Origin: Nemertoderma westbladi
Lineage: Eukaryota > Animalia > Xenacoelomorpha
Assembly: GCA_032718475.1 (NCBI GenBank)
Contig: JAUCBJ010008092.1
Location: forward strand, 48,315 to 112,314
Direction: 5' to 3'
DNA: 64,000 nt
Shown: positions 6,701-64,000 of the stretch, piece by piece
Numbering within the stretch: position 1 is the stretch's first letter
Layout: the number at the start of each line of letters is the position of its first letter
Position numbers and translations under genes: made by a program
The notes under the pieces: generated by a model
What the model was told of the DNA's origin: nothing
What the model saw: the letters and a program-made list of their open reading frames with translations, nothing else
The model's database searches: none

Positions 6701-7298
6701 AAGAAAAACTTTGATCAACCGACAAACGAATAGTGGTAAATGCACAGTAGAACAAGATGAGTTAAATTGGATTCTTTATTACTACCGTAATCGTCCTAAT
6801 ACTTCAATTGGTATATCACCCATGAAAGCCTTTTGTGGTTGGGAACAGGGTGCAATCAATTGGACAAGTGCAAAAGGATACAGCCCTAGTACATGGGTTG
6901 GTTACCGCATGAAACTAGCCGCCGAGTTGTTTGATTTCTTGGAGCTACAACTCTCAGCATTAGATAATGACCTAAAAATTGTAACAAGGCAGTTCACTGC
7001 GGGGGACAGTGTTTTTCTACGAAGAGACCCCAGGGCCGGAAAGGCATTCACTCCCTGGGAAGATGGGTGGATGGTTGTGGGACAGAAGGGACTGGCTACT
7101 TACCTGATAAAGCACAAAAACCATAAACGCCGGCAAAAGATTGTAAATGTAGATTTGTTGAAGACACCCGATGAAACAACAAATAAAACTAACATTACTC
7201 TTAACAACTTTACAACTGGTCCCATTCGAGAAGTAGTTACCGATTCGAATTCATTAGATGAAGTTATTGTTGAATTGGAGTCTCCAAAGTATTGGTGA
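3777..7298 (+). pseudogene. pol: pol (protease, RT, RNase H, integrase) with two in-frame stops
   Basis: Protease LDT; RT LDLSKAYLQI...YVDD; RNase H DSS...AELDA...TDS...NKAD; integrase H..H..C..C, SDAG, VER. ORFs 3777, 6141 and 6486 share a frame, with stops at 6117-6119 and 6471-6473. Confidence 0.92.
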
Positions 7299-7430
7299 AG
7301 GAGTCTTATCTAGTAGTGAGAGCGATGTTAGTGAGTGTGAGGACACACGTGGGGTTATCACTAGGAGCGGCCGGATTGTGAAACCTCCAAAATACTATGG
7401 TTATTGAGAAAATACAATTGCAGGGGGAGA

Positions 7431-7763
7431 TGTTGGGTCGGCGGGTGCAATTGTGTGTGGTGAGAGTAGGGCGATAGGTCGGGGAGTAGGTGAGGACCTA
7501 AGGCGAGGAAGGATGGAGAGTGATAGTTAGTAGAGAGTGTGGAAGTGTACCGGTAGGCGGTAGGGCAGTAGAGTGGTACTTGGGTTGCGCGGATTAGGTT
7601 TATTGCTCGGATTCAGTAATTGGTTATTGTTAATTGTGTATACTGGTTTATATTGTTATATTACATATATATATAATAAATGATTGCATTGAAGCTCAAA
7701 GATATATTGATTATTTAAGTGACTGGGAAGTTTGGGAGAACGTTCGTTGTATTCGATGCTACA
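7431..7763 (+). repeat. 3' LTR of Gypsy-type element
   Basis: Copy of 1102-1436, preceded by a PPT and followed by the ACTT TSD. Confidence 0.95.
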
Positions 7764-8068
7764 ACTTGCGACGTGTCATTGGTGGGGAACCGTTATTTGG
7801 TGAAGAAGGTGGGGAACTTCGCACTTTTAGCCCTTCAGCGGCGGAAGGGTGATTTCCAAATAATCTGAAAGGGCCGCGACTGCCTGCACATTTGGTCCAC
7901 CAGTGGATGTTTCCGGTTGAGGTTCGATAACCGTAGTTGCCGCCGGAATGGAATAGTGTAATAACTTCACACCCTTTCGGAGTACTTTAGCCAGTGAAGA
8001 TCTAGAGGAAGGGGTTAACGTGGATTGTACCGCTTTCTTAAGTATGGCGGCAGTGACCGGTCCTTTAA

Positions 8069-10318: not shown

Positions 10319-13300
10319 TTAAGGGTTTGTGATAAAGTCATGACACCTCCTCTGTCTGAAACATACCTTAGAGGCTTGACTGTCTCTTCCGCAAGATGTG
10401 TGGTATGACGGAGGTATGTAATGCGATCCGAAGTTTGTAACAACTCAGGATTGGCGGCAACGAACTCGTAACTAAGATTGGAGTCTTTTCGAATAAAATC
10501 GATAAGGTTATAAGTTGTCACATCACCGGGGTTCATACGGCGAAGGAATGTGCGCACGTATTGAACGTTGGTGAGCTCCGAGACTGTTAACAGTAGTTGG
10601 TAGTCAGGAAGGTGGGATCGTTGCTCTTCAATCGCAAAGGCATAGGGGTTGAAGGCAAAGACTCCGCAACCGCAATATGAGCGGGAAGACTCATAACGGA
10701 GGCGCGTGATTTGATGTAAATCTGCGGAATGTAATTCCACAATTTAATATACTTTAGGAGGGATGTTTCATCGTCCCGTTGTGTCAAGTGAAAGGGGCAA
10801 GAGCCCAGATAATGTCCCTTTAATAGACATTTGTCGCATTGTTCCAAGAATTGCGGACAGTTAAAGAACGTGTGATCATTAAACAATCTACAATACGGAC
10901 AATGAAGGGGTACGTCAGAACATTGTGAATATGTTTGACAAATCGTGCCGGTAGGTGGCGCTTTATCCGCATGGGAGCCACATTGAATGCAGCGCTTTCA
11001 ACCTTGTGATACGGCGGAACGAAAGTCAAATCTCGTTAATGGCTGTGGTCCAAGGTGCCATGGTATAATAAACTCGCCGTCATCGTCTTACTCAGAAGTT
11101 GGATGGATGGGTTTGGATTCTAAAACTGTCCGCTTGTAAAACGTAGTCATTTAAGTAGGAAGCTAACTGCTTATCCGAGGTTTGGACAATTGAGACTGAA
11201 TACCCAAACTTGAGGATGGGGCGTTCTAGAATAGTGGAATGTAGGTTTTTGACGCACACATCCTTGAATATGGCGAAACCCTTTCGGTTTAGGTCCTCAA
11301 AAGCGGACAAACGCTTATTTACCTATCCCTTCAGAGCAGGGTCATGGAACTGGCTGTCAATGCCGAAGAAGGGGAATAAGAACCTTCGAAAACATTCGAA
11401 ACTTTGGAATTTCCCTTCAAGATTAACCTTAGCAAGCTGGGTTACGAGAAGAAAAGGGTGGGACCTCAGAGTCCTACTACAAGTATCAGCTAACCAACCT
11501 GATACGGCAGAGTTCTCGTAAATCATGTAAATAGTGAGAGAAGGCTGAAGAGGGACACTAATGTTAGAATAAACAGCACCAGGGGCGGTCAAAGGACAAT
11601 TGAAGTAATAAAGGGAATAATTATCACTGTATAGGTTTAAATAACAGTTATACCGACCTTCCTTGAAATCCCTACCGAGTTCATGGAACGAAATGTGTCT
11701 GATGCCGTTACATTCAGCTCTACGCATCCCGTTTCCTACGCGTTCATAAATGACACAGAAGAAGCCACGCCACATTCCTGGGCCCATGGGAGCATCATTT
11801 GAGTGTCCGCAAAAGGGTAAGGGATGTCTAATAAGGAGTCAAAGTCTTTATACAAGTCGGGATATATCGCTGAACCGAGTTTACCGATCCTCTCGTTGAA
11901 CAACAGGTCGAGAACGGGTTGGGGCAACATTGAAGGCTCAATGCCGAGCGTAGGGTGACGTTTGGTTTTAATAACGTATCGGTAGGACTTCTCGAACTGT
12001 CCATGCTGAGGTAGCGCGTCAGCGCTACGGGAGATTCGTGTGAATACATGGGTGGCTCTGGTTAAGCCATGGATATGTATTAATCGGGTAGTACCGAGTT
12101 CATCGTTCGATACAGAACCTTCATTACCGTATAGCATTACGCCATATTGTTGGATAATCATCCACTTCAACCGGCGTCCATAAGCTATCGAGGGAACCAA
12201 TGGAGCTTCGGGCGATAACTACCGATTTGTAGCTTTGGACGCAGTCTAAGGTCGCAGTCACTTGCGGTCGGTCAGATTGTAATTCAAGGCCAGTCAGTAG
12301 TGGGTTGGTTTGTTCCGGTGATAGTGGGTGATCGATTTAGTTTTGAGGGCATAAAGGAGTTACCCGCTTGATTCGAACTGGAATATTCTGGCTCGGGCAA
12401 TTCTCTAGTCGGAGATCTGTCCGGGTCGGAATTTACTGGTATTGCAGTCATGTCAAGTTTGGAAGTGTGGTCGCTGTGGGAACTGTCTGAGGAGCTCTTG
12501 TTGATATTTGAACGATGAGACATTTTGTTAGATTTTATTTTGGAGAAAATGTATTTTATTAACCCTTTAAATAATTATTATGCATCCTTTTATTATCGAC
12601 GATTTATTGTAACAATAATAATATGTTATAAATAATTATTACAATCGCACCCAAGTAAATAATACAGAGGGGGTATAAGCAGGGTAGTTAACTACTGCTA
12701 ACCTACTGCCACCTTCCTATGTAATACGCCTAAATTAACAGCTTGGGCTGAAGGGCTAGCAAGCTGTGCGATGTTTCCTATGGGGGTAACACAGCCTACC
12801 TATTAGTAGCAACCAAACGAGCAGGGTGTATAAGCCTAGGCTGTAGTCAAAGGTTACGCAGAGGTAGGACAAGTCATGTGATACAATATTGCTTGCAGAG
12901 ACAACAAATAATTCTTCCCGAGAATTATATTGGTTTTTTGGAATATTACGCTGACAAGAGGTCCAAGTTGTAAATATTGGATCTGATGGGGAATATATGA
13001 GCTGAAATGTTAAATAGCTCGATGATATGTATGTATATCGGCTAAAAGTTCCTTGATATTTATTATGGAACAATAATCTTGGAATAAAAACCGCACAACT
13101 CAATAAAATAAATACAAAACGTTACTTATACCTACAAATACCTACGTTACGATGGAAGTGCGTAAACTTAGAGTTTACTTTATTGTAGTATACGTAAAAA
13201 ACAAAATTGGCTATGGGACTATGATAAGACTATGGGAATTTACCAGGGAATTTGCAAAACGCTTCGAACGTTTAGGAAGTCGAAACCGGTCAAGAGACAA

Positions 13301-37366: not shown

Positions 37367-37484
37367 TTCTTCCTCTTCATCGCTTGACTTGGTGTCAGTC
37401 CTTAGCGCTCGCGATGGTTTGCGCGCCGAGGCCCTGACCCAAGCCTCCTGTATAAATTTCTCGGCCGAATTTTCGAAATTGGGA

Positions 37485-39611
37485 TTATGGATATTTGGGA
37501 CAGGCGGCCTTCCTTACCTGAGGTCTATGTGGTATAGTCTCCTCCGATATGCGTACTCGTTGACTAGGCTGAACTTTATCTAACTCAGGCCTGCTAGGAT
37601 TTGAATTACTTCTTACCTGGGCTGCTTCCTTTAACCGTAGGTTGCTAAGCATGTCTGTTATAGGTTGGATGTGTGGCGATATAGCTTGCGCTAAACTAGC
37701 ACTTAACTCATCCCTCGTAATAAATTCCTGGCTAGGGTTATGTTGTATAGTCGGCTCTATCTGAGTAATCATCCGCTGTCTCTCATATGATCCCTCTTCC
37801 GGTTTAACCCGAAAGTTCTCCGTCGAACTGGGTCGGCGCTCCGTCCACGTATTCCAAACCCGCGGGTTCGGTTCGCCCAATACTCGTCCTGTCGGAGTTT
37901 CTCTAAACTCTCCGTTGTCTCGTTCGGTGTATAGTGGTGCGGTGTTCCGATGACGTAGATCCTGGGCGATGGGTGAAGCACTTATAGCAACTGGCGTGCG
38001 ATAGGTAGAGAATGGTTTAGCGATCCGTGTACTCGTAATAGCTGGACCGGGTATAGGAATTCTGGTCGTCGTCGACTCGCGTATAGTCGGAGTTCTCGCT
38101 TCCTGTTCGGCCTTCTGCAGTGCGAACAGTTCTCGCAACTCTGTCCCTACACTCGCCCCACATTCTTCGAACATTCGCATCCCCTTCTCGGCGATTTCGT
38201 TCGCCTTCCTAGTCCGTTCTTCGCTCTCTAAACTTAATCTCGCACTTTCCAACTGCGCCAGTTTACGTTCTTCTTCTTCCCTCGCTCGTCTCGCTGCGCC
38301 CTCTTCTTCCACACGCGCCTTTTCTTCATACAACATCTGTCGCTCCTTCTCGATCTCGAGTTCGCGTTCTTTGCGCTCGCGTTCGAGCTGGAGTTTGCGT
38401 TCCTTGCGTTCGCGTTCGAGCTTGAGTTCGCGTTCCTTGCGTTCGCGTTCCGCTTGCTCGCGCTTACCTTTCTCTTCCAACTCTCGCAACTTTGCGTCTA
38501 ACTTACGTGTGCGCTCCCGTTCCCGCTCGGCTTCCTTCCGTGCTTCCGATGCACGCAAAACTTCCGCCTGTTGTTCGTCCAGTCGGCGTCTTCTCTCCTC
38601 CGCCGAGTTGTGAGAAACAAGGGATCTAGCACATATAACCTTCCCTCGCGCGTGACTAACCTGGGAATCGCCACTGTCTCTGGATGCGTCGTCGGGTGGA
38701 GTCAACGTCCTCTGTTGAATGTTCTCCATCGTCGGTAGCACCTGGCCTGGTACCACCACTCCATTCTGCATCAGCCAGCTAGTAACTTCCCTCTGATAAC
38801 GGCGCTCTTCTTTATCTTGGATCTCTTCCCGCTCCACTAAGTCTCTCAACTCTGCGTCACTCACCTGAGTCGCCTGCGTTTGTGTTGCCCATAGCAGCCA
38901 GTTCTCCGTCCTAACTCGTCGGAATTGCTCCGATAACTCGCGGTGCTCCAACAAGGCTGCTAAAACCCTGTCGTAAATCCTCGTCGCCACGTCGCTCGAC
39001 TGAGACTCTACTGCCTTCTTCGCTAGGACTGCAAGCTCCTCCGTCTGCTTGAATAACGCTGAGTTATATCCTCTTCTAATCTCTACTAACTCTACCCTTC
39101 CGATGTTCGCTGAGTCAGCTAACATCTTCCTTACCTTGTCCGTCGTCCGAGTTATATGTCCGGCATGCGCGCGAAGTTTCTTCTTTATCGCAATATCAAG
39201 TTCTCTCTCACTTACCTGACTCACACTCGGTGGACTTGAAGGATTATTTCGGGAACTACGGGTACTCCTAACAGCCGTTGGGACCACGGCACTTACCATA
39301 CCCACAGATCTGGAAACCGGGCTCCGGGCTCTCGCTTCTGCTACACTACCCTCCCTATCACTCACCTCTGGTTGGGTTGCTGTACAATCCTTCCTTACAG
39401 TAGCGGTAGGGGATCCTAATACTATTACCTCTGGTTGTTGTTCTTCCTCACTGGTCACTGTCTCGTCCTCCTGTTCACTTACGTCAGCGTCGCTCGCTGC
39501 GTCGTCATAGTCGGCATTGTCGTCAACAGTAATATTTACGCTATCGTCAGTCGGCGGTCCAGCCGCCGTCTCATAGCTGTCCTCTAGTGCCTCCTTGTCT
39601 GAGACACTCAT
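37485..39611 (-). CDS. gag: BEL gag N-terminal ORF (acidic region, E/R/K coiled coil)
   Basis: 708-aa ORF directly upstream of pol; LRAHAGHITR motif and long charged coiled coil; +1 offset to the pol frame. Confidence 0.85.
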   Translation of the reverse strand: MSVSDKEALEDSYETAAGPPTDDSVNITVDDNADYDDAASDADVSEQEDETVTSEEEQQPEVIVLGSPTATVRKDCTATQPEVSDREGSVAEARARSPVSRSVGMVSAVVPTAVRSTRSSRNNPSSPPSVSQVSERELDIAIKKKLRAHAGHITRTTDKVRKMLADSANIGRVELVEIRRGYNSALFKQTEELAVLAKKAVESQSSDVATRIYDRVLAALLEHRELSEQFRRVRTENWLLWATQTQATQVSDAELRDLVEREEIQDKEERRYQREVTSWLMQNGVVVPGQVLPTMENIQQRTLTPPDDASRDSGDSQVSHARGKVICARSLVSHNSAEERRRRLDEQQAEVLRASEARKEAERERERTRKLDAKLRELEEKGKREQAERERKERELKLERERKERKLQLERERKERELEIEKERQMLYEEKARVEEEGAARRAREEEERKLAQLESARLSLESEERTRKANEIAEKGMRMFEECGASVGTELRELFALQKAEQEARTPTIRESTTTRIPIPGPAITSTRIAKPFSTYRTPVAISASPIAQDLRHRNTAPLYTERDNGEFRETPTGRVLGEPNPRVWNTWTERRPSSTENFRVKPEEGSYERQRMITQIEPTIQHNPSQEFITRDELSASLAQAISPHIQPITDMLSNLRLKEAAQVRSNSNPSRPELDKVQPSQRVRISEETIPHRPQVRKAACPKYP

Positions 39612-46118: not shown

Positions 46119-48669
46119 GGCTAGGGTAGTTATGTAATTGTAATAATCTGTAGGCCTAGTATAATACTGTATCTAATTGTATTATATTATTGTGGGTCAG
46201 TCAGATAGCAGCTCATACTGATTTATACAAATATAATGTGGCCAAGTACAAAGTATGTGGCTATGTTGACGCACTCAGCGACTAATTGGCTGGTAATGTA
46301 TGTCGTCATGGGCAAGCTGTAAATTACCTTAGGAGTTAAATAAAGTTATGGGTTTTAATAAACACAGTCGAGATTATTTCTGTAAAGCAATGTTATTATT
46401 CTTATGAATATATTAGGTCTAAAGTCGCCTGTAATCCAAACAAATAGTTATGTTTAGAGTGAAATTGGCGTGGGGTGTCTGGTCCTCTGTTCTAAACACA
46501 AGGATTAATGTATATTAAGATTGGGTCTGTCACTGTCTGTTAAATAAGCAGTTCAACGGCCTAACTAGAGATGGAATAAACAATTATTATAGTATGTAGG
46601 TAATAGAATGTACTTACACAATATCTTTTGGGAGCTGTACACAACGTTACAGATTTAGGACAATTGCTTGTCCTTCAAAAAATAATAATATGTAGGGCAG
46701 TAGGGCGTATGTATGATAGAGCAAATGAAATACCTTGGTTAATTAAGTTACTGAAGTAAAAAATCTGAAAGGGTAATACAATTTTAATAATTAATAACGT
46801 CCGCAACACACAACACAAGCTGACCAAGTTATTAAGTAACGGTAATGAGTGTAGAAATCCATCGGTAATTAATTGCTTCACACGCAGGGATTGCCTTGTG
46901 TTCACTTCCGCAGGTAATAAGGTCTTACTCTCTCACTGACTTACGAACTTGCAACCAATAATGTCAAAATTTAACCACAGTCACACAAGTAAACTAAACG
47001 TGAGTAAACCAAACAATCAGTACCACACCAAATAATATCGGGATTATCTATGCTGTCTGTTGTCAAATAACAGCCTTCCCAGTTCAACAAGCCTTTTGCT
47101 TGCATCCATGTCTATAGCTCGAGATTTACAACTCCCTCGGGTGACACAAGACTTTCTCCTACACGTTTGGAGGATTTCACATCGGGGACAATGCAGAATT
47201 TCAAAACCTTCAATAATTCGTCAATAAAGCATTCAGTTCTCAATATCAAGCAGAATAAAAACATATACGAATAACACAGCACTAGCTCTACACGCATTTG
47301 AAGCAGTTTGTTTACACAGGAAACCACTGAATGAAGTAGGTATAATAAAGTGTACAGTTTTAATACAACCTACCTCAAACAGTTCCTAAGGATGTTAAGA
47401 TGGTCATTAAGTAATTGATTATATCTCAAATGAGGGGTAGTACTTCACTGTCTTGGGAACAGTATGGAGAAAATAAAGCTTCACTGTCCTGTGGACAGTG
47501 TGAGAAATTAAATTTTCACTGTCGAGGCTTTTACTGATGGGCTGACAATAAACTAACAATTGTCCCCAAGCTTAACTCGTGCATCTACTTAAATCAGGTT
47601 CTGTATGTTTTAGTCTGTGAACTGAACACTAACGTTGCCTCGGGATACCTACCACACGGTAGGAGTGTTCACTGATTTGTGAATATATATTATATAATAT
47701 ATATGTCGAATTAAATGGCATAATCAAATATTTCGGGTAAGGGAGTTTAGGGCATTAGAAACTACTTCAAGGAGTAGGCCTAATATATAATTACTATACG
47801 TGTAAACTATTCCTTTATGCTGTGCTGTCTGTGAACAACTGTACGTGCGACTTATTACGAATTGTGGGTAGGACGTTATATGGGGCCTAGTGCGGTGTAA
47901 ATGCACATTGCATGCGTGTTGCATACATGACGGTATAGATATATATCACAGTTGTAAGTTGTTTAGTTGGGAATAATATTACAGTACTGAGAATAACATA
48001 CACACGCAGTGAGTTTGAACTGAGCCTGATTTAGATTAATGTTACAGTTTACACTCACCAGGTTGAAAACGATGCAGTATGATCTTGAGTCAGTAGTATA
48101 TTCTCCAAACAATACATACAATAATAGTAACTATAATATAATGAGGCTGTATCGCCTGGCCTGTACTGCAAACACGGTGAAAATTTATAGGTTTCTAGTG
48201 TCTAAAGAGAACCCGAAAAAATTTAGCGGCTTAAAATGATGTAAGTAAAGCTCAAATTTGATTCAAAGCACAGAGTTCTACAGTATATGTAAATCCAAGG
48301 AGTGTAACAACCAATGAGATGGGAGCTAAAGCTCAGATCAACACCCTATGAGATTCTGATACAACACAAAGGTGATGCTAGGCAACGCTATAAACATATT
48401 GATAACACTGTGGCATAAAGATTAAAGATTGTACATGAAGACAGACAAATTATGTATGAAATACAGTATTACACGTTCGTGGGGCCTTCACGCAGCACGA
48501 GGCCTAGTTAAGAGATACAAATTAAAATTGAGCGACTGTATCACAAAATCAGGTTTTGAGAAATTTACCCACACCACCAATCAATCAAAGAAAGGGGGAC
48601 AGTACGTGTTCACCCCTTTTAATCTCCCCACCCCCCCCCCCCCCCCCACCCTTCCCAAATCCAAAAAAT

Positions 48670-50498
48670 TTTACTCTGCTAATCTACAGGAGCTAATAAA
48701 CCAACAGGTTGATGCCATCAATGATGTTGACGACAGCAGGCAATCATCCCAGGCATGGAAATCGATCAATCTGCTTACTGGGCGGAAAAGCCAACCAACC
48801 ACCAAGGTTAAGGCTGAATCACCAGCCGATCGCCTCAATGGTTGGAAAGCCCACTTTGAAAAGCTCCTCAATAATGACAGGGTATTGCCTGATAACTTTA
48901 TAGAAGTAAAAGTGTCTGAGTCTGTACTCCCAGATATTTCCATCGGCGATATCTCCTTTGCAGAAGTGAAGGGTGCTGCTGCAAAGAGCATTAAGACCAA
49001 TCGTGCCAGTGTAGTAGATGGTGTTCCCCCTGAGGTCTTTAAAATACCTGAGTGTTTAAAGCTCATCTATCCCATCATAGTAGACATGTACCGAACAACA
49101 AGAGTCCCACAAGAAATGAAAACAAATAAGTTGGTGCCAGTTCCCAAGAAGGGCAACCTAACACTCTATGGTTCTTTTCGGAGAATCTCATTGATCTCGA
49201 TTGGTGCAAAGCTATACAATAGGATTCTATTAAATCGCATCAGGGATCCCATTGAGAGACTGCTCCGTGGAAATCAGAATGGGTTCCGTAAAGGTCGTGG
49301 GACCATGGAGCCCATTTTGGCACTTAGAAGGATAATTGAAGAGTTATCAAAAAAGAGAGACAGGCATCTGGCTGTTATCTTTGTTGACTTCTTCAAGGCA
49401 TTTGATTCAGTCTCTCGCTCACGTATGTTCAGCATACTTTCATTATATGGGATTCCTGATGAAATTATTGCAGCAATCAGATCAGTATACGATGGTACAA
49501 CAACATTTGTGTCTACTGTTGATGGTGGCACAGAACCATTTGAAGTGTTATGGGGCGTCCTCCAAGGAGACACACTTGCACCATTCTTGTTCATTATTGT
49601 GGTTGACTATGTTCTACGCATGTCCTTAGATCATTATAATGATGATGGGGTGATGATAACTCCACCTACTGGCTCCAGAAGTCGAGGAAATCCTGCCAAG
49701 TACCTAACTGATCTAGACTTTGCTGATGACTTAGGAGTACTCTCAGAATCATTGGAGGGAGCCCAACGGCTCCTCAGCTCATTAGAACATGCTGCTTCTA
49801 GTGTTGGTCTTTTTATTAACTCCAGAAAGACCAAAATTCTGACAGTTAACTTTGAAAGTCCTCAGCAAGTCTCTGATCGGATGAGCATAAGCTCAAAGGA
49901 TGGTATGCTTGAGCATGTGGACGACTTCTGTTACCTGGGATCATGGATCCGGAAGTCAGGTGAGGACCTTCGAATACGTAAGGGAAAGGCATGGGCAGCC
50001 TTGAATAGGCTTTCCAGGATTTGGAAGTCACCGAGAATTAATCGGAAACTTAAGGTCCGATTATTTAGAGCAGCAGTAGTTCCAGTACTCCTCTACGGGA
50101 GTCCATGCTGGGCTCTAACTGCTGAGGACACCAAATCTCTGGATGGCACATTCACAAGAATGCTACGCCGGGTTCATTGTGTCAAGTACAATGCACACAT
50201 CTCCAACCAGACACTATATAACATTGGAGGAGTCTCATTGGTTCCCCCAAGCTTGACACTAGAACAAAATCGCCTCCGCTTTGCAGGACATTGCTTTCGC
50301 CGTGAGGACCAGCCAGTGCATAATCTTGTACTTTGGCAGCCTCATGGAGTGAATAAGCATGGTGGACAGCCCATGACTTTCTTGAGACGCATCTTAAAGG
50401 ACACTGGCCTTAAAGATGCGGATGATCTAGCAAATGTCATGGGTGATAGGGAGTTGTGGCGGTGCAATTTTGTTGACAAGCCGGCACAGCATTCTTAA
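48670..50498 (+). mobile_element. 5'-truncated RTE-like LINE; RT ORF open, endonuclease missing
   Basis: FRRISL, NQNGFRKGRGT, FVDFFKAFDSV, GVLQGDTLAPFLF, LDFADD, YLGS, RLRFAGH. Confidence 0.9.
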
Positions 50499-52269
50499 AA
50501 ATGCAGCTGCAATGCAGCATGCCGATCCTAGTAGTACCCTTCCCAACCACCAATACATTACCGCGACATCTACAACCCACGGAAGGGTAGAACGAACTTA
50601 TTTCCAATCGCACGTTCAATATGCAAAGCCAGGTGGTGTATACTGTATAGGAATATAATCAACGCCCTACTCGTCTTAATTATTATAAGCGTCGTTGCGC
50701 TCGTCCTGTTTTGTATTTAAATATATTTCCTAAACGCGGACTGACAATCTTTATAACTATCGATACGTGCAATATGCGAAACCAGGAATGGTTTATAGGA
50801 ATATAATCAACACAGAACGCAGTACTAAATGCAGTCGATGCAGTAATGATATTCAAATAATTAATTTAATACCAGTACCCTCTGTTAATGCCTCAGTGTA
50901 AAAACTTAGACAATTCAACTACACGGAAATCCCATAAAAAAAATAAGCCTAATATTTATGAGGAAAAAAACAAGTATGGATATAAGCCTTTTGCAGTGGT
51001 AAAATGTTATTGACTGACATTTATTAAATGAGATCTGTCAAACATGCAATTCACCGATAATAGACTGAAAGTAGGGAAGTCAGATTTCCATTTCGTTAGC
51101 TTGCTATGGCCAATCTGTTTACCTGCCTGTACACATGTGGTTAATTACATTCGCATTCCCATTGGAGAGTAACTGGCTGTTCTATACACACACATCCTTC
51201 CCATTCTATCTACCAGCACCGATCGAACTTGGATGTTAACCAATAAATCAGCAGTATTTAATGAGAATCAATTTTTTATGCCGTTTTAATTACTTTAGAT
51301 CAATTAAAGACACAATTATTAAAGCAAATCACTTGAACTAATTAAAAACTATAATAGAATGGGGTATGTGGATTACATATGTATAATTTTTAAGTATAAT
51401 TATTTAAATCTTATACTGTAAAATAATTAATTTCCTTTAAAAGGCAGGTTCAAAATGCTGTTTTTACCGTAATCAACTTAATTTACTAATTAACTGCTAT
51501 TATCTTAGCTTCTCGAAGGCCACACGGAAAAAAACACTGCAAAAAAAGCGACAGAACGACAGAACGAGAACGACAGGTTTATTAATGGTACCACTACGCT
51601 AAGGCTCACTCACTTCGTGGCTCGCCCCACAGGTTGATTAATGGTACCACTACGCTAAGGCTCACTCACTTCGTGGCTCGCCCCACACAGGTAAATAATT
51701 GAATGGTTCTCAAATGATGAATATAAGAGTCCAATTCGAAGTAGCCGCGTGCATCAAAACACCACCGAGCTAAAATTATCTTTATTTGCTGATTTCATTT
51801 CCGATGTCAGTTTTAATATTTGGTGGATGTAGTCTGTCCGCCCGTCGGTTATCTGTCAGTCTGCCGTAGATTATGACAGACACGTTAGAAGACAGCTTTT
51901 CCGCGATCACTAGAGAACTAAAAGAGATCTCTCTAAGCTGTTTTCAGATTCTAAATCCCCAATACATTCAGCTCTAGATGCAATAAAAAATCAAATTTCT
52001 GAATTTTTTCGAGCGGGGGGGGGGGGGTGTTGCACCCTGCAGGGGGGGTGTTGGGTTGCTACCCCACCCTTAACTGTGTTCAAGACCAGTCCAGGAAGTA
52101 TGGTTTTTTTTCATGGAAACAGACCCTACAGGAGGCCCCTAGGTCTACTGTATGTAGGTAACATACAGTACCTGTACCAGTACTGAATCTCTACATACCT
52201 ACCTAGACTGAAAGCAATATGATAACTTAATAAATTAATTGTTGTGGGGTGAGTGACGGTGAATTAAAT

Positions 52270-52993
52270 ATATAATGTAGATAGGACAATATGATAATGC
52301 GCTCCATAGCGAAGAATATCAACCGACCCTGTTGGGGCTCGAACCTGGTACCTAGGTTTCAAACTTCTGGTTATCATCAGCCGGGTGAGCGTACTGAGCT
52401 ACCAGACCGGATGAATATTTCACTATGGAGTGGGAGATCATATTTAGGCCAACTAATCACTCAAAGGAAAGTACAACGTTATTCCCGTGCTCTGCCAGAA
52501 ATGGCAACCATGCCTCAAAGAATGACTAGTATACGGTGTTGTAGAAACCACTGTAACCCAGTATTGACTGGCCCAGGCTGTTAGTTAATAATATTACATT
52601 CAATTCGTACATATTTCATCATACATATTTCATTCAATTCACATCATACTGTACAATTCACTTATTATTGTTAATTAACAGCCTGGGCCAGGCATGCGGG
52701 GTTACAGTGGTTTCTACAACACTGTATAGTGTATAATAGTTATTCTTTGAGGCATGGTTGCTATTTCTGGCAGAGCACGGGAATAACCTTTGAGTAATTA
52801 GTTGTCCTAAATATGATCTCCCACTCCATAGTGAAATCTTCATCCGGTCTGGTAGCTCAGTACACTCACCCGGCTGGTGTTAACCGTAAGTTTGAAACCT
52901 AGGTACCGGGTTCGAGCCCCAACACGCCAACAGGGTCGGTTGATATTTTTCGCTATGGAGATCATTATCATATTGTCCTATCTACATTATATA
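52270..52993. repeat. Fold-back element with about 320-bp arms carrying Pol III A/B-box-like motifs
   Basis: 52270-52590 is the reverse complement of about 52670-52993; TGGTAGCTCAGT (52850) and GGGTTCGAGCCC (52908). Confidence 0.8.
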
Positions 52994-54257: not shown

Positions 54258-55364
54258 TTGCACGCGGGCTAGTGTCCCGAGTCAGGGGGCTAGGCCTACT
54301 GTCCGGAGTCAGGAGACTAAGCCTACTGTCCGGAGTCAGGGGGCTACTGTTGTGATCTTGTCAAGGAGGGGGGTGTTTGGTAGGGGCTGGAAGGGCTGGT
54401 GTCTGGAGGGCCACTGTCCAATGGGCTATTGTTCGAGGGGGCTAATTGTCCTCTAACTCTATGTATATTTCAAGCAAAAAAAGGTGTTCAGAAAAAGGTT
54501 CAGGTGCGCGAAGAAGTCAGATTGACTCTGATTTCCAGATGGTATCCATTTTCGATAGAACTACCCATGTCTATGCAGGTAGGTACTGGAAGTCGTCAAC
54601 TTTCCATATTTAATTATTATCAAATACAAGTGGTCAAGTATCCATTACCATCAATAATTAAAAGCGTGTTATGAGACCCCTTACAATACCCTTACTCGCC
54701 CCATAAATATTAATCATTAATTAAAAGTCATGTATTCGGTCTTGATAAATTTATATGGAATTCAACTTATTCAGCAGCCGTTTCCACTTTGTTCCGTATA
54801 AGTTTTGCATTATGCTAGCGTATTTGTTAGCGGATCCATACCGCTGCACACCATCTACCGAGATAATGGGGAACAGGGTGATTTACGAATCACCCACAGG
54901 TATCCAATATCCAATATAAATGAGGCGATGTGATGTTAAGCTGGGAGATGGTTAACAATTCATTTCAGGGGAGAAGATAGCATAGGGCCAAAGGAACATG
55001 GAATGACACGAGAGGGGGAAAAACCTAACCAATGGGAGGGCCACACATGGCATGTATAACGTGTATCCACTATCCATTGGTCGGTCACCATGTAGGTAGG
55101 ACTGTGATAAGTTTCCATGTACTGTAGTTTCCATGCAGTTTCCATACATATACAGTATGTTACCCAATATCAATGTTAAGTCGGCTATTATCTACTGTGG
55201 ATGTTGGACGGTTTTTGACCATCGTCGCCTAGTACTTACTGATTGTGCTGTGATCCGTTTACCGGTACTTATATATATATATCAGCTATTATGTACAACG
55301 ATAAACCAATAACTCTTGCTCTACATTGGCCTACGGCCTTTTCAGCCTTTAAAGTTACTAGGGC

Positions 55365-56259
55365 GTGGCGACGCGTACAAAACACGACAAATTTCACCCG
55401 ATCAGGATCCGAGGAGCGGATCCGAAAACTAAGGAAGCGTTCTCCATTTATAAACTGTTCTATAAATGTGGAGGATGTATGCGTGCGCAAGACAACGCGA
55501 TTCCTATGTGCTTGAACCCGGAGAACCCCAAGCCGATATTAGCGCATTGCCCACACCACCAGAGTCTGCGTTACCAAGAAGGTGGATACCCTTTGATGAA
55601 TCCGTACCACTGTTTAAGATGAGTGGACCAAACGTGGGCGAGATTGTTGTTTATGAACCCAAATTAGTCGAACCAGACGTCTACAGTATGGTAATAGATG
55701 AATCTAATAAGTCGACACAAGAGAAATGGGAAGCATTAAGCCTCTATAGGGCGTACAAGGTGTACGAGAAAGGTGAGATCGAGGAGTTTGGCGGAAGGCT
55801 ACCATTTTATTGGATATCCTATGATCAAACCGAACCTAAGGAGATGACACCCAAACTCTTCGATAGTATAACCTTTGCTCAGCTTTGGTCGCAGAGACTA
55901 CAGATACCACACGTCGAGATGACGCGAGAATCTCAACCCCATCCTACCAAGGCGGTAGTACCGGTCGCGAGAACAACCAGCTTTCCTATTAGTATACCGA
56001 CCCGAGAGGAGACAACCTACGAGATCCCCATAGTTGAACACCCGGAGATAATTTCGAACCTGGATTTCCTCCCATCGGTAACGTTTGGCGATGTGTTAGA
56101 GGCGGTGGAGTTGCATATGCATAGAACAATAGTTCAGAAAATGGTACGCAACGTGCCTCCACATATTACCGACTTTAAGGAAGGGGATCGCGTGGGGACG
56201 GATATCGCACCTTGCATCCTGCGAGGGTATCTAGCAAAGATGATTCGATTATGGATCGG
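55365..56259 (+). pseudogene. N-terminal fragment of the BEL accessory gene family (one frameshift), truncated at 56259
   Basis: FSIYKLFYKCGGCM...CPHHQSLRYQEGGYP vs FSVYKLFYKCGECM...CPAHQFLRYNEGGYP of 28763-30430; SLYRAYK; KMVRNVPPHITDF / KFLRDVPMQITDY. Confidence 0.85.
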
Positions 56260-56559
56260 TGTTCGCGGTATTTCAACTTTTCATAACGCGAGTTGAATAT
56301 TTTTTGTATTTATTTAAAATTGATTATTCCGATATTACTACTGGGTGCGGGACCATGGGTTTTGGGCACATTCAATGAACTGGGGGGGGATTGATGGGCG
56401 AACTTTGGGGCAACTTACAGGGTACGGGAATAATTTCATAGTTATAAGGGCCAGGGGTGGGAGGCAAAGTTAAGCAGTATTCAGGTTAGCCTGAGTACTA
56501 TTAGGCCCTGGCCAACTTCCTGCTGCCTGTAGGGGTGGATTTGGTAATGCGCCAGGCCT

Positions 56560-57480
56560 AAAGGACAAGGACTGCCCTTAGCGGTCCCTGGCCAACAGCA
56601 GTTATTACGAGACTGAAAAGAACTCGGAACGCTGACTGCTGCTTGAGTCAGGGATTCGCGACGGGAAACGACAGCCCCCTTAGCTAAGCCGTACTGGTTC
56701 TCGATGACCGATCCCTTCGGGGTTCGCGAGGGGTGGGACGGACATGCGAAAGGGTTGGCCGACAAACGACTGCCCCCTTAGCTAAGCCGTACTGGTTCTC
56801 GATGACCGATCCCTTCGGGGTTCGCGAGGGGTGGGACGGACATGCGAAAGGGTGGCCGACTTACAGAGGAAGGGTTTGACGAGGACTGCCCTTAGCAGTC
56901 TCGGGTCAACAGCAGTTATTACGAGCCTGAAAAGGACATCGGAACGCCGGCTGCTTGTACCAGGGATTTGCAACGGGAACCGAAGACAGACCCCTGAGCT
57001 AAGCCGTACTGGTTCTCGATGATCGTTCCCTTCGGGGTTCGTGAGGGGTGGGATGGACATGCGACGGGGTCGAAAGACAAAGGACTGGACGCTACTGGCC
57101 TACCGACTGTTCGGAGCAGTTTCTCGGTTGCCGAAGCGACTACGAACCTGAATAAGGACTCGGAAAGCCTAGGTGGTTGGGTCTCTGCGATGAACTGACG
57201 GACCCGTAGCTAAGCCGTACTGGTTCTCGATGATCGAACCCTTCGGGGTTCGGGAGGGGTGGGACGGATGCTCGAACGGGTCCACCGACACGACAGACTC
57301 CTAGCCAAGCCGTACTGGTTCTCGATGATCGATCCCTTCGGGGATCGGGAGGGGTGGGACGGATAAGCGACAGAGTCTACCGACTGGGCCGACCCTTAGC
57401 CAAGCCGTGCTGGTTCTCGATGATCGAACCCTTCGGGGTTCGGGAGGGGTGGAACGGACACGCAACAGGGTCGACCGACA
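56560..57480 (+). ncRNA. Array of structured RNA modules (6 of motif A, 3 of motif B) upstream of gag
   Basis: Conserved about 62-nt core with cUUCGg hairpin, closed in each copy by a different complementary stem. Confidence 0.7.
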
Positions 57481-58115
57481 CCGACACTACGGCACTAAGA
57501 CCAGGACTGGGGAACATTAGGTAGGCTAAAATCTGGGGAACATTGTGTAGGCTAAAATCTGAGCGAACAGTGGGTAATTAAATAATATACTGTAGGGACT
57601 TATATTGTCATGTGTAATTATTGTGAATATTTGGTGTATATTGATTTGGGGAAGCCCAAAATTATTCTCAATCAGGTTTCAACTGTAGGAAGTTACATTA
57701 AAGAGTATATCCAACCAATGCGACTTTTCCTCAACCGCAATCCTGCATTTAAGAAATTCCTCCTTCTCCAAATTCAATATCCGGTGACTGGGGGGGACTC
57801 TGTGGTCTGTAAAGTCACGTATCCAGCATCGGCGTTTTTCCCCCCTGGTGTAGGGATAACGGCAACAAAATTGAGAATAATTACGGTCAATTTTGACAGG
57901 GTGTCAAAATTGAGAGCAAAACGCGGCCAACTTCAACTGGTGGAAGTTGAGAATCCTTCAATACTCTTTAAAACTCTCTACGTGCTTGCCAGCACCCACT
58001 ACGAGGAAACTCTGGTATTTGAGTTAAGACGAAGTCGTGGTTTTATTAATCAACAAACTCGATCTAACCAACTCGTAGTCGGCAGATCACATATTTGGAG
58101 AGTTGTTAACAGGGA

Positions 58116-58307
58116 ATGGAAGTATCGATCACACCCATTGATATAATCCAAGTTGAGCCAGGAATCTGGCACGTCGAAGTTGAAGTACAAGGAACGAACG
58201 TCGGACGATTCAGGATTACCGTTCGGGTGGTCCAAGCTGAGTACAATACCTACGAGGAACTGTTTTATGACATCGCGTATCTAGCTATCGACGAGGCGCT
58301 ACAATGA
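58116..58307 (+). CDS. Small ORF overlapping the gag start (ATGA)
   Basis: 63 aa; its TGA stop overlaps the gag ATG at 58304. Confidence 0.35.
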   Translation: MEVSITPIDIIQVEPGIWHVEVEVQGTNVGRFRITVRVVQAEYNTYEELFYDIAYLAIDEALQ

Positions 58308-59605
58308 CGACCAATAACGTATCCGATACCGACGAGATGGATCACCACACAGACTCGGAAGCCGACGAGGTACCAAACGTCAAAAACATGACCCGTCGGC
58401 TAGGGGCTCTCAAAGGCGGAGTAACCCGAGCGTATCAACGGATAGAGAAACAACTCAAGGGAATCAAAATCCCCCTCAACGAGATACAAACTCAGCTTCA
58501 AAGTATCCGAAATATCCTACAGCGGTACGAAAGAATGATACAGGCGTACCAAGAGCTAGTTCCCTCCACTGATCAGGAAAACTACCCCAAGTTAGAAGAA
58601 CACGTTGTACATCTAGATGGGTTCCGCAAACAACACCGGAGGACCCTCAGCCTTGTGAGAGGCTATGAAGAACAGTACTACAAGAGAGCTGAAAGAACAG
58701 ACGCGGAATCAGTACGATCCTCCAGCATCAGGACAGCAGTACATCGAAAGAGAATGGGGTCCTCGAGAAACCAGCACTCCAGCGCTCGGAGCACGGTGTC
58801 CGGTTCAGCACACAGCTCTCAAGGGGGTCAACCACTCCGAGACCAGCTACGAGAACAGAAGGCATTAGCCCTCAAAGCTCGGATGGAAGATGAGTACGTT
58901 CAACTGCAAACCGAACAAGATATATTAGCCACCGAAATGCAAAAACAGGAGGCCGAACAAGAGGTCGAACGGCGGGCCGAACAACATAGACAGGAGGTCG
59001 AACAACGGGCCGAACAACATAGACAGGAAGCTGAACAACGTGAACGAAAGGCCAAACAGGAGATCGAACGACGGGCCGAACAACATAGACAGGAAGCTGA
59101 ACAACGTGAACGAGAGGCCAAACAGGAGATCGAACAACGTGAACGAGAGGCCAAACAGGAGATCGAACAACGTAAATGGGAAGCAGAAATGCGTAAACAA
59201 CATGCCGAGGCCCAAGCGATTCTCACCCACAAAAAGAATGCGGATATGGCGAAACTCGCGGAATACGAAGCCGCACTTATAGAACGAGATATTCAACTAT
59301 ACGAGGACTGGGAAAGGGATATAGATCAGGAATATGAGCCAATCCCGGTACCGGAATTAGAGAAGTCATTTGCACCAACAGCGGCGAAACTTCCGAAACC
59401 CGAGATCACGCCTACCATACAGTCTACGTTATCGGCACAAGCACCGGTGTTCCATCCCCCACCGGTTACACTTAAAAATGAGGAACCATATTTCCCGTCC
59501 AACCCCACGGCAACGAGTGTACCCAAGTACAAGCCTGAAAGGGACTCGGAACGGGACGCCACTCCCCGATCCAACAATCCGTTTACATCCCACCACAACC
59601 CGTAG
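58304..59605 (+). CDS. gag: BEL gag N-terminal ORF with EQRAEQHRQE coiled-coil repeats
   Basis: RRLGALKGGVTR motif, coiled coil, LSAQAPVFHP. Confidence 0.85.
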   Translation: MTTNNVSDTDEMDHHTDSEADEVPNVKNMTRRLGALKGGVTRAYQRIEKQLKGIKIPLNEIQTQLQSIRNILQRYERMIQAYQELVPSTDQENYPKLEEHVVHLDGFRKQHRRTLSLVRGYEEQYYKRAERTDAESVRSSSIRTAVHRKRMGSSRNQHSSARSTVSGSAHSSQGGQPLRDQLREQKALALKARMEDEYVQLQTEQDILATEMQKQEAEQEVERRAEQHRQEVEQRAEQHRQEAEQRERKAKQEIERRAEQHRQEAEQREREAKQEIEQREREAKQEIEQRKWEAEMRKQHAEAQAILTHKKNADMAKLAEYEAALIERDIQLYEDWERDIDQEYEPIPVPELEKSFAPTAAKLPKPEITPTIQSTLSAQAPVFHPPPVTLKNEEPYFPSNPTATSVPKYKPERDSERDATPRSNNPFTSHHNP

Positions 59606-62254
59606 TCGCATCATCATTAAAACTCCACCTATCATTGATCCATCAAGTATGGGAGAGAGTGCCGATAATTATAACCCTCCTAGTTATTCCAGGTCGGACG
59701 ACGTCGGCATTATCCGGGCATTGGAAAACCGCCTCTCCATGCCCAAGATGGAGATCCGCGCCTTCGAAGGAGATCCCGTCGATTACCTCAGATTCAAGAA
59801 ACAGTTCTTTGCGCAGATCGGATCAACGGACATAGCCGACGCACAGAAATTGGTATATTTATCGCAATACCTGGGTGACAAACCACGCCGAATTATTGCA
59901 TGTTTTGAGGGAGGTTCTCATGAAGCATACTATGACGCATGGAAAACTCTAGACAAAAGATACGGAAATACCGGGACTATAATTAATAAAACTCTAGAGA
60001 AACTGATACAAGACGCGGGATCACTAGGGGACCCACAGAACCTCCAGGAATTCTCAGATTCCATGAAGGATGCCTACTACACTCTGAAACCCTTAAATAA
60101 GGAGGACCAGGTGAACAACATTCTAAACCTCCGACAGATCGCCCGGAAGTTCCCCGGATGGCTACAAAGTAAGTGGGCCTATAAATGCGTAGATCTCCGG
60201 CGCAGACATCCAGATCGAGACCCCAGCTTCCTTGAAATGTCGGCATTCCTGGACGATATCTCCGAAGCCATGAATGACTCGATGTTCTCGAAACAGAGTC
60301 TCGCCAAGTTGGACGCAATGGAGAGCAATTACCAGAGCAGGGCACCCACTCCAAACCCAAGATTCCCCCCTACTCCCGTGAGTACGATGGCCGTCAGTAT
60401 GGCTGAGGACTCGGATGACGAGGATTACGAGGAACCGACCTTAGCAGAAGAATGGGCATGCTACCTAGCGAATTGGGCACCCAAAAGGGAAGGCACCACA
60501 GCCTCCCCTATATGTCTCTTCTGTGGAGAGAAACATAAATTGGAATTCTGCGGAAAGTTCCAGTTCGCCGAACTCGTCCCACGCTTCGAGGCGATAATGA
60601 AACACCGAGGATGCTTCCGGTGTCTTGGAACGGGTCACTATGTTCGGGATTGTGACCAAAGATCGTGCTGTGCGGTCTGTAACGACCTACGTCATCACAC
60701 GCTCCTCCACATCCCCGCAAACTTCGATTTCACTACCCTCCCCTTTCGGATCGAAGCCAAGCGAAGAGGAGAAACGAACCACGTTTTCAAAGGAACCCGG
60801 ACAACCCAACGGAGAGAAACCAATCCGTTTAAAATCTCCACCGATAAACCACAAGTAACAAATATTTCAGCCACGATTAATCTTATAAATCGCCGTTACA
60901 TGGTCTTCGCAAAGGTAATCCCAGTAAGGATTCAAGGAGTCGGCAAATCCCTGACGACGCTCGCGTTCCTTGATAACGGGTCTGACGGAACCATCATCGA
61001 CCGGGATTTCCTCGAGCAACTCGGCCTAGAATATGAACCTTGTAAACGGCCCATACAAACCATCACCGATAACAGAGAGGTAGAGTCCGGGGAGGTGCAA
61101 CTCCAGATGGAAGGAGTAATGAAGGGCTACGAAACGGTTAAGCTAACCATCAAGAACGCCTTGGTACACACAGACCTCCGAGTGCGGTTCCGACAATCAG
61201 CCGAGTACGCCCCCCTCATACAATTGGACCGAGACGATGTAGATCTGAGGTGTCCGCAGTTGGACGTAAACCGCATCACCCTACTGATCGGACTTGATAC
61301 ACCGGAATTACACATACCAACCGGAGATGTCGCCCGATCCATAAAGAAGGATGACGGCTTTTACGCTGAACGAACAATAATGGGATGGACCCTCTGCGGC
61401 ATCAAGGAAGAAACTACTGACACCTATACATACCTTCCTAAATGTCAGATTAAAGAAAATGCAACATCCGTGGGTTATTGCTCAGCTACAGGCCTCGATG
61501 AGGATTTATTTCCTTGAGACCGAAAAAACCCAGCAAGAGATGACTAAATGCTTTAATCTAGAGACCCAAGAGTTTGCTGAAAAGGACGAGAACCCGTCCG
61601 AGGAGGATCAATATTGTATGGACGTCCTTGACCAGGCCAAGTTCAAAGACGGACATTGGTGCGTCGCCCATGCTTTGGTGGCTAGTAATGTTTTTGATGA
61701 TAATAATGACGTGGATAACATTGACACCATTAATGGGAGAGTATGGACTAATCTGCCGTAATACCCGGATGGCGAACGCCTCAGTTGAGTCCCTCACTCC
61801 TAACCACCTACTGGGGAGACCCAAAACTCATGTTCTCCCAGAGACAATGTTTCCGGATCCCAACGATATCGCGAGACATACAAACTGGAAGAAGGCCCAA
61901 GCATTGGCAGCGCATTGGTGGAGAATCTGGGCCCAGGAGTACCTCATAACCCTCCGGACCAGGAGGAAATGGAACAACACCTACCGGAACGTCGCAGTTG
62001 GCGACATGGTACTAGTAAAAGAAGATCTCAAAGACCGCGTTCACTGGCCTGTGGCGCGGGTCGTGACCATACACCCAAGCAAAGACGGACTTGCGAGGAC
62101 TGTGACGATACGAACGGCAAAGGGCCACTACCAACGCCCTATCCAGAGGCTGTGCCTTCTTGAAGGCAATGATAGCGGTGACTCTACGAGAGGTGATAAG
62201 TTCCCTACTCAAGATCCTGCTGCGGACATTGGTGACAATGATAAATGCGTTTGA
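59606..62254 (+). pseudogene. pol: BEL capsid + knuckles + protease, then a deletion joined to the integrase C-terminus
   Basis: FEGDPVDYLRFK, CLFC..H..C, CFRC..H..C, CAVC..HHTLLH, FLDNGS; frameshift about 61510; jump about 61670-61785 to LTPNHLLG...WWRIWAQEYL...RPIQRLCLL. Confidence 0.9.
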
Positions 62255-62532
62255 ACCCTTCTTATCCTGTTGACAAACTCTTTTAAACTGTGATTTATCG
62301 ACGATGAAAATGGACCCCCCTTAAACCAACTGTAACCACGCAATGGTATTTGTGTTTCCTCGTGTGTTATGTGGAGTCCAGCGTCACCCTGCAGATGTTT
62401 CGACTGACGCAGGGTCGTTTATGTATTGTTTACCCTGATTTTGGTCATCGGGACCAACGATATTGGATTATTGGAAATGGTAAAGATTTGAAGTGGAATT
62501 CATTGTATTCATTGCAGTATGTTATGTTGTCC

Positions 62533-62942
62533 GTTGCGTGCGCAGTTCGGGGCGTAGGCGGTGTAACGAGTCCAGCTGTAGATCCCGGATTGCCGCGCAA
62601 CACCCCCTCTATCCCGTTATTCTGGTGGGTCCATGGTGCATCCACATGACTTCGACGATAGGGGGTTTTATGTTCTCAGTCGCGTTATTCTGGTGGGACC
62701 GTTGCGTGGATTTTGGGGCGTAGGCGGTGTAACGAGTCCAGCTGTAGATCCCAGAATGTTGCGTAACCCCATCCCACATGACTTCGTCGACTGAGCTTTA
62801 TGTTGTTGGGAGTGTTATTCTGGTGGGTCCCTGGTGCATCCACGTGACTTCACTCCCAGCGTCTTCATTGTCCGTTACGTGCGCAGTTTGGGGCGTAGGC
62901 GGTGTAACTAGCCCAGCTGTAGATCCCAGATTGCCGCGTAAC
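62533..62942 (+). ncRNA. Three covarying hairpin repeats between pol and the downstream ORF
   Basis: Core GGGGCGTAGGCGGTGTAACGAGTCCAGCTGTAGATCCC at 62533-62601, 62701-62767 and 62874-62942 with compensatory stem changes. Confidence 0.6.
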
Positions 62943-63499
62943 ACCCCTTCCACAACAAAGATTTCCCAAAGAAGATGATTGAATGTAGTTGGAAATGATG
63001 AAAAGACTCAGACAACTCTACTATAAACCGAATGATGACGCGTATGCTGATGAAAATGTAATGATGCGCACCCTGGTGCTGCGCTTATAACAATGATGAT
63101 AGCCGGGGGGCTATAACCCCAATGATGGTGTGGAAATAAACAAAATTGAGAATAAATGGTGGAACTAAATGTGTTGAAATGTGTTGAAATAAATGAAATG
63201 AGATGAAATAATAAAGAGAAATGAAAAAAGACAAAAAAAAGGTATAAAAAAGTCTAAAGAAAAGAATTGGAAAAAAGAAAAGGACAAAAAAAGTCATAAA
63301 AAACTGGTTGGATATTAATGTATAGCTATAGTAACTGTAAATGCTGAATGTATTAGCAATAAGATGATAGATGTCTATATAGCAATGTTATTAATAAACT
63401 GAACTAAAAATAAACTGAATTATTCTGCAATCGCTATAGTTTCAGACTTTCTGGACTTATAATTAACTGATCTAATTTGTAACGGATATAATCGTAAAT

Positions 63500-64000
63500 A
63501 TGGACCCAAATCGCCAAATTATCGGCGAATTACGTAACACAATAGATCTACTGGAATATTCGCAACCCGGATCCCCTGACTTTGATACAAATTGGAGCAC
63601 CCTGCTAAATGAGAACGTGCGAGTCGTTAAATTCACCGGGCGAGAGGGACCGGATTCAAAGTATCTACGAGCCCTCCGGTTAGCCGATGCTAGTACGAGA
63701 CTGAAAAGAACTCGGAATGCAAAGGCAACCGGAGGGGACGAGTCGTCGTTTTGGGAAACATTCCGACAAAGCGTCTACAAATCCCAATGTTTGATCTACG
63801 ACAACGAGGGAAACGCGACACCCACCTCGAAAGCGATTACGTTGGCGAGATGTCAAAGTTTCGTCAACGACAAGAGTACGTACCTCGCCCACTGGGGAAA
63901 CCTGTCGGAGTGTACTGCGACGCTTCGAGAGGAACGCATATCGATTATCCAGAACCGCGACGACTACCAGGATAAGTACGGGGTGAAAGAATACGGTCGA
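63500..64000 (+). CDS. Downstream ORF of BEL element 2, 5' part, open to the window end
   Basis: ATG at 63500 and 167 stop-free codons (MDPNRQIIGELRNT...QDKYGVKEYGR); not in the supplied ORF track; same position relative to pol as the accessory gene of element 1. Confidence 0.65.
   Translation, partial: MDPNRQIIGELRNTIDLLEYSQPGSPDFDTNWSTLLNENVRVVKFTGREGPDSKYLRALRLADASTRLKRTRNAKATGGDESSFWETFRQSVYKSQCLIYDNEGNATPTSKAITLARCQSFVNDKSTYLAHWGNLSECTATLREERISIIQNRDDYQDKYGVKEYGR

Follow-up and report, generated by a model that had tools for sequence, protein, structure and literature searches.

A sequence of about 30 nucleotides recurs at five sites along a BEL/Pao LTR retrotransposon of Nemertoderma westbladi, twice within coding sequence (Table 1), and is likely to be a selected RNA module. 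The window analyzed here is the whole 64,000-nucleotide stretch of contig JAUCBJ010008092.1 (positions 48,315 to 112,314). A first-pass annotation of this window had pointed to a 24-mer repeated exactly, to two variants of it, and to enclosing stems unrelated to one another, and all three observations were borne out. The identical 24-mers lie at 56606-56629 and 63694-63717, and no match, even with 3 mismatches allowed, arose in any of 100 dinucleotide shuffles of the window. Searches for repeats, patterns, and fuzzy matches recovered the diverged variants at 56920 and 57141 and also a fifth copy, at 59528 within gag, that had been overlooked. A structural descriptor returned exactly five matches in 128 kb (both strands), all on the sense strand of one element. 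A covariance model built from the five copies scored these training sequences at 47 to 55 bits, a match by construction, and detected no sixth copy in the window, the next best hit reaching 15.5 bits (E = 0.03). Three copies are non-coding, at the tips of arms in a hairpin array, and the other two stand alone in coding sequence far from that array. The intact sister BEL element in the same window had no convincing copy, and the module is therefore not general to the group.

Table 1. Features of the module-bearing element and their coordinates in the window
Feature	Position	Strand	Description
Broken accessory gene, 5'-truncated	55310..56296	+	homologous to the post-pol accessory ORF of the sister element; 5' limit approximate
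Module copy 1	56599..56634	+	tip of array arm A1; core helix probability 0.96-0.97
Six large B arms	56670..57488	+	interleaved with A arms; kink-turn sequence pattern, UUCG hairpin cap
Module copy 2	56913..56949	+	arm A2; 3' strand with one extra base
Module copy 3	57134..57170	+	branched arm A3; most diverged of the five
gag ORF1	58304..59605	+	433 aa, N-terminal part coiled-coil-like; no Pfam family
ORF2	59370..61517	+	Pfam: DUF1759 capsid region, zinc knuckle, aspartic protease
Module copy 4	59521..59556	+	gag ORF1/ORF2 overlap, about 47 nt 5' of the ORF1 stop
DUF5641	61883..62161	+	Pfam E = 6e-30
Second array	62527..62950	+	lies between pol remnant and accessory ORF; three copies each of two other hairpin types
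Accessory ORF	63500..64000	+	no known family; open past window end, 166 aa in window
Long hairpin	63672..63736	+	perfect 10-bp basal stem, two 3-bp stems, module at tip
Module copy 5	63687..63722	+	within accessory ORF; S-turn (AGUA/GAA), 4-bp helix, bulged A, and UGAAA T-loop predicted

All five copies are predicted to share one fold that includes an S-turn and a T-loop, the three-dimensional shape being read from their signatures. Across the copies, 21 of 36 positions were invariant. The common predicted fold opens with two or three closing pairs and an A-N-U-A/G-A-A internal loop, and continues inward through a 4-bp helix, a bulged A, and one or two further pairs to a UGAAA loop with one extra base. 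Pairing was possible in 39 of 45 cells of the consensus structure (86.7%), a value equalled in 1 of 500 shuffles; slid registers paired only 16 to 37%, in a lenient control for which the structure had been drawn from the same five sequences. The closing stems, unrelated in sequence, lie in register at every site, and two of the closing pairs change on both sides. No covariation was detected in the core helix among the five copies, its letters being almost invariant, so recent copying could explain part of the identity.

The S-turn signature, seen at the level of sequence, consists of five positions that are invariant in all five copies and lie between pairing stems. In an S-turn, a bulged base within a helix is surrounded by a sheared A.G pair, a Hoogsteen U.A pair, and an A.A pair, and replacement of the bulged G by U is reported to cause little loss (PMC7583486). 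Here the bulged base is G in two copies, U in two, and C in one, and the loop-E pattern AGUA/GAA described in the first-pass annotation accordingly holds for the ORF and gag copies but not for the array copies, which read AUUA or ACUA. The T-loop signature, UGAAA plus one base closed by C-G, was present in 4 of 5 copies, copy 3 carrying an extra U; bulged bases after the fifth A are a property of T-loops (PMC3854523). Six pairs separate T-loop from S-turn. The energy model, which does not score S-turn or T-loop motifs, gave the core helix strong support in copies 5 and 1, variable support in copies 2 and 3, and none in copy 4. The pair probability was 1.0 in context for copy 5, 0.94 with 40-nt flanks and 0 with 100-nt flanks for copy 2, and 0.8 and 0.3, depending on flank length, for copy 3; the fold of the gag copy, which has a CCC/GGG closing stem and a mismatch at one core pair, was not predicted by that model (probability ≤0.05). 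A search of Rfam 15, self-cleaving ribozymes included, gave best matches of 11 to 16 bits against thresholds of 40 to 80.

The copy in the accessory ORF lies about 190 nt past the ORF start, at the tip of a long hairpin with a minimum free energy of -33.9 kcal/mol (z = -7.9; 0 of 200 shuffles equally stable). The basal stem of this hairpin is the only perfect 10-bp stem (loop ≤60 nt) in the approximately 20.6 kb of coding sequence of the three LTR elements in the window.

The host is, by its encoded domains, a BEL/Pao LTR retrotransposon. Its ORF2 had one homolog (E = 1e-6), and the element resembles the intact sister element (E = 6e-15). DUF5641, which we take to be the integrase C-terminal region of BEL/Pao elements, was retained, and the reverse transcriptase, RNase H, and integrase core were missing from the module-bearing copy in Pfam searches. 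No LTR pair was found within the window, and the element runs past the window end. For the accessory ORF starting at 63500, there were no homologs among longer proteins and 0 among 1.84 billion representatives, and Atlas matches stayed under 0.8; a single-sequence structure model was unusable (pLDDT 40.5). No homologs were found for the sister accessory ORF either. By tblastn (E = 1e-26 and 1e-9), the broken gene at 55310-56296 is a homolog of the first of the two accessory ORFs that follow pol in the intact sister. The candidate placement of the 63500 ORF as the N terminus of that broken gene was not supported, alignment scores falling within those of shuffles; with the two thus not tied to each other, a tandem or permuted layout may still apply. 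A 178-codon ORF without a Pfam match lies at 57610-58146, between the array and gag, and no tRNA genes were found in the window.

The array that holds copies 1 to 3 had been described as a leader containing a larger motif of which the module would be a minimal version, and neither description was confirmed. None of the six large arms was scored by the covariance model at E ≤ 10; these B arms carry a kink-turn pattern instead, and the reading of the module as a miniature of them was rejected. In a standard kink-turn, two stems flank a three-base bulge and the G.A and A.G pairs that come after it (PMC5061560). The B arms fit this pattern at the level of sequence: a kink-turn descriptor matched four of the six and nothing else in the window, the pattern was visible in all six, and the flanking stems were 94% paired, with covariation not above that of shuffles. 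The basal scaffolds of the A and B arms are similar, which suggests a common origin with different tips, and the modules of the array sit at the tips of long arms beside the kink-turn arms. As for position, the array lies about 270 nt 3' of the accessory-gene fragment and about 800 nt 5' of gag, and neither an LTR pair nor a tRNA primer site turned up that would place it at the 5' or 3' end of an element. What was called a leader may be the 3' spacer of a tandem or permuted copy, following another accessory gene. A candidate polypurine tract/LTR junction at 57535-57545 was weak and was set aside; in the sister element, 34 nt separate a similar string from the start of the LTR. The second array was also more stable than expected (z = -4.3), its sense fold reaching -184 kcal/mol vs -142 kcal/mol on the other strand. 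Loose ends in this second array suggest that the number or order of its units varies among copies.

Sister copies of the accessory-ORF site, the only site covered by this comparison, were recovered as contigs from four public runs (X1-X4, at most three samples). Part of the stretch was present in 6 of the 7 public runs found. Contigs occurred at depths of 5000 to 6700 beside others at 17 to 70, and although depth is not copy number, these values are consistent with a multi-copy family. As the first-pass annotation would have it, the module was kept in the ORF of sister copies: it was present in all four contig sets, and no indel was seen at a frequency of at least 4%. The variants considered were 40 of 140 rows in the wider comparison and 16 rows for 63622-63800 at a frequency of at least 4%. 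Among the variant sites listed in the ORF, 17 of 26 fell at third codon positions (P = 0.0008), a concentration that shows the ORF to be coding. The variants probably come from the ORF site itself, because partially fitting contigs were few (4 of 163, 9 of 113, and 6 of 90) and the letters specific to copies 2 and 4 were absent among the variants listed.

Five sites vary within the hairpin at 63672-63736. At 63718 the window carries a private letter, from which nearly all sister copies differ; in its common form, the ORF copy agrees with copy 1 over 27 nt. The two commonest variants, 63700 A>C and 63709 A>G, were found at 4 to 18% of depth and at similar levels in three runs; together they would swap an A.A mismatch for a C-G pair, a replacement that also distinguishes copies within the window, and 63700 A>C turns Arg into Ser. 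The variant at 63682 lies in a bulge and that at 63683 at a paired base, the three-pair stem being kept in a shifted register if the two are in phase. For both of these pairs of sites, phase was judged from similar depth rather than read. The first-pass annotation had called for a test of suppressed synonymous variation across this hairpin. With paired and unpaired calls taken from the fold predicted before the variants were known, third codon positions varied at 0 of 13 paired sites vs 4 of 9 unpaired sites of the hairpin (P = 0.017) and vs 7 of 27 sites in the flanks (63630-63671 and 63737-63775; P = 0.048); when window-private sites were left out, these values became P = 0.055 and P = 0.12, respectively. 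Overall variation in the hairpin was not lower than in the flanks (5 of 65 vs 10 of 81 sites; P = 0.26). Few variants are involved, and they are consistent with selection on the RNA at the accessory-ORF hairpin, if modestly so.

If the copies were neutral products of template switching, or if only the encoded peptide were conserved, this could account for the 27 nt common to copy 1 and the common ORF form, for the missing covariation of the core, and for an overall variation that is not reduced. Such an origin is nonetheless extremely improbable: the module occurs at five sites rather than as a one-off copy, unrelated stems close it in register everywhere, three of the copies are non-coding, and paired third positions are invariant, yet a pair-adding, non-synonymous change is common.

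Some further observations were made on the same contigs. Loose ends at 63685 and 63719 (X1, X2, X3) point to the module in a further context outside the window, with flanks that, judged by eye, can form about seven pairs; in one X3 contig of low depth, the module seems to be missing its 5' strand (loose end at 63701). Six of the nine window-private ORF differences among those listed were of the CpG-deamination type and point to methylation of the host's DNA; module copy 4, in gag, has its mismatch at a CpA as well.

One ligand for several sites had been proposed in the first-pass annotation, and a common partner is a fair inference, with the structure kept at several sites and in sister copies. 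The maintenance of one module at several sites in unrelated stems argues for one recurring interaction. Two considerations favor a diffusible partner: two copies lie by themselves within coding regions at a distance from the array, and the letters of the core helix are near-invariant, as expected for sequence-specific reading beside grooves opened by an S-turn. Such grooves are used by proteins or RNAs (PMC7583486). We tentatively regard the module as a multi-site tag: a single partner, most likely one of the element's own proteins, would bind the genomic RNA at many module sites, and the bound RNA would then be assembled for export or packaging. The export or packaging step is suggested by the cis RNA elements that LTR elements use (PMC5767303, PMC10309623), and Cer1 CERV is an LTR retrotransposon with its own export protein (PMC10309623).

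The partner need not be a protein, since a T-loop is typically a device for RNA-RNA contact. The main alternative, possible if doubtful, is that the module fastens RNA to RNA, the T-loop taking an intercalating base (possibly the bulged A of another copy) and the S-turn docking on a neighboring helix; distant sites or two genomes would then be clipped together, with the kink-turn arms shaping the array. The UGAAA T-loops of the FMN riboswitch take an intercalating adenine from another loop (PMC3764141), and the S-turn of T-box Stem II docks on an RNA duplex and tolerates a change of the bulge from G to U, matching the G, U, or C seen here (PMC7583486). The invariance of the bulged A in 5 of 5 copies, the tendency of T-loops to bind RNA, and the placement of the array modules at long-arm tips beside kink-turn arms all fit such contacts. 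However, a receptor was not found, kink-turn arms are missing near both of the copies in coding regions, and the hairpins beyond the kink-turns end in UUCG rather than in a docking loop. Rather unlikely is a self-assembling RNA scaffold, in which T-loops would catch the bulged A of other copies or a tRNA elbow and the kink-turn arms would compact or dimerize the genome; the tRNA elbow was considered as a target because the intact sister shows no standard tRNA primer site. If true, this would amount to a riboswitch-grade, self-assembling RNA in an animal transposon, with its outlying copies hidden in coding sequence.

A circuit of the Rev-response-element (RRE) type had likewise been suggested, and of that comparison the location of one copy in an env-position ORF stands as a parallel to the RRE (PMC5767303). 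In its strict form, the accessory protein would bind the module and export only intron-retaining RNA, which we consider very unlikely. The accessory ORF start is preceded, at about 50 nt, by a possible splice acceptor, and Cer1 offers a precedent in an LTR retrotransposon (PMC10309623). The copies, however, are short (about 30 nt) and dispersed over the array, gag, and the accessory ORF, and no single candidate intron holds all five. Nor was a Rev-like protein identified for this role (no homologs; model pLDDT 40), and the most basic patch of the accessory ORF product is encoded by the 63672-63736 hairpin itself, whose RNA sequence may have forced it.

Loop E hairpins are found in IRES domains, and this counts toward a translation element that would contact the ribosome, either for internal initiation or for a change of frame from ORF1 to ORF2. 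Module copies do precede gag, sit 47 nt ahead of the stop of ORF1, and occur about 190 nt downstream of the accessory start. The probability of such a role is slighter still, however: the sister element, with the same +1 relation of ORF1 and ORF2, had no convincing copy near the junction, and an initiation element would not usually be located 190 nt into an ORF.

Export elements such as MTE, PTE, and CTE usually lie between an accessory gene and the 3' end, where the first array may also lie. The MTE of musD, the gammaretroviral PTE (PMC5767303), and the CTE of MPMV (PMC10309623) are, like the present case, multi-domain structured RNAs in LTR elements, but they rely on kissing loops, a pseudoknot, or NXF1-binding loops, whereas here a repeated S-turn and T-loop unit is accompanied by kink-turn arms and also occurs within ORFs. 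The likeness to HIV-1 RRE/Rev and to Cer1 CERV consists in a structured cis element in an env-position ORF and in an LTR element with accessory proteins of unknown family (PMC5767303, PMC10309623). The RRE (PMC5767303) is one large multibranch element on intron-retaining RNAs, in contrast to the five dispersed copies of about 30 nt; both RRE and Cer1 also have a trans-acting export protein, whereas no such protein was identified here. The accessible part of PMC10309623 names no RNA site for Cer1 CERV.

Stem I and Stem II of the T-box riboswitch contain the same parts, namely, an S-turn, a UGxRA-type T-loop, and a kink-turn (PMC7583486). Here, in contrast, these parts are on separate arms of a eukaryotic transposon, the T-loop is single, and paired T-loops, a specifier, an antiterminator, and an Rfam match are all lacking. 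Identity with the T-box was rejected, the kink-turn, specifier S-turn, and double T-loop not being on one stem and Rfam giving no match. The L2 and L5 T-loops of the FMN riboswitch likewise have a UGAAA pentaloop on a short stem (PMC3764141). Unlike that riboswitch, the module has no six-helix junction or ligand pocket, and no receptor loop was identified for it. In its common form, the ORF copy has the AGUA/GAA bulged-G motif and the flanking pyrimidine pair of the sarcin-ricin loop of LSU rRNA. A longer helix and a T-loop, however, take the place of the GNRA tetraloop, so the loop as a whole is not mimicked. The motif class is described in PMC3854523.

Scans with degenerate patterns gave 0 matches in viral contigs and 0 in metagenome contigs, and a scan of prokaryote genomes gave 1 match vs 1.1 expected by chance; that match (L001), in an archaeal coding frame and without a closing stem, was rejected. 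A gag-based search for related loci in metagenomes returned none. In the literature, searched mainly at the level of abstracts and with subscription journals thinly covered, no such module, and no array of kink-turns or of T-loops, was reported for BEL/Pao or other LTR elements, and a mechanism of RNA selection, export, or packaging for BEL/Pao was not found; such arrays are not mentioned in the accessible part of PMC6431247. The module belongs with the cis-acting structured RNA elements of LTR retroelements, with an architecture that we did not find described, and we infer that it works like a response or packaging element. At 30 nt and in unrelated stems, it offers a minimal and directly testable handle on BEL/Pao RNA. 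Should this hold, the S-turn, T-loop, and kink-turn of riboswitches and ribosomes would also serve as modular signals in an animal transposon, including its coding sequence, and the orphan accessory genes of large BEL/Pao elements would gain a candidate function.

The window holds several neighboring elements. The intact sister BEL element (22960-43730, minus strand) spans 20.8 kb, with 2.2-kb LTRs that are 98% identical and bounded by TGT...CA, a 5-bp target duplication, and, after pol, two accessory ORFs that belong to no known family. The sequence that follows its 5' LTR does not resemble the consensus of a standard tRNA 3'-end primer site. Two broken remnants of these accessory gene families were found at about 10600-12200 (minus strand) and at 55310-56296, and their shared domain, with a CxxC...C..H pattern, could bind zinc. 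A Gypsy-like element with 336-bp LTRs (1102-7764), an RTE-like reverse transcriptase ORF (48429-50498), and a long inverted-repeat (MITE-like) element (52269-52993) were also present. In both BEL elements, ORF2 is in the +1 frame relative to ORF1, and ORF1 ends in a proline codon, a stop, and a U (59594-59606, plus strand; 37484-37496, minus strand), forming a candidate +1 shifty-stop site that presumably resembles those of the antizyme type.
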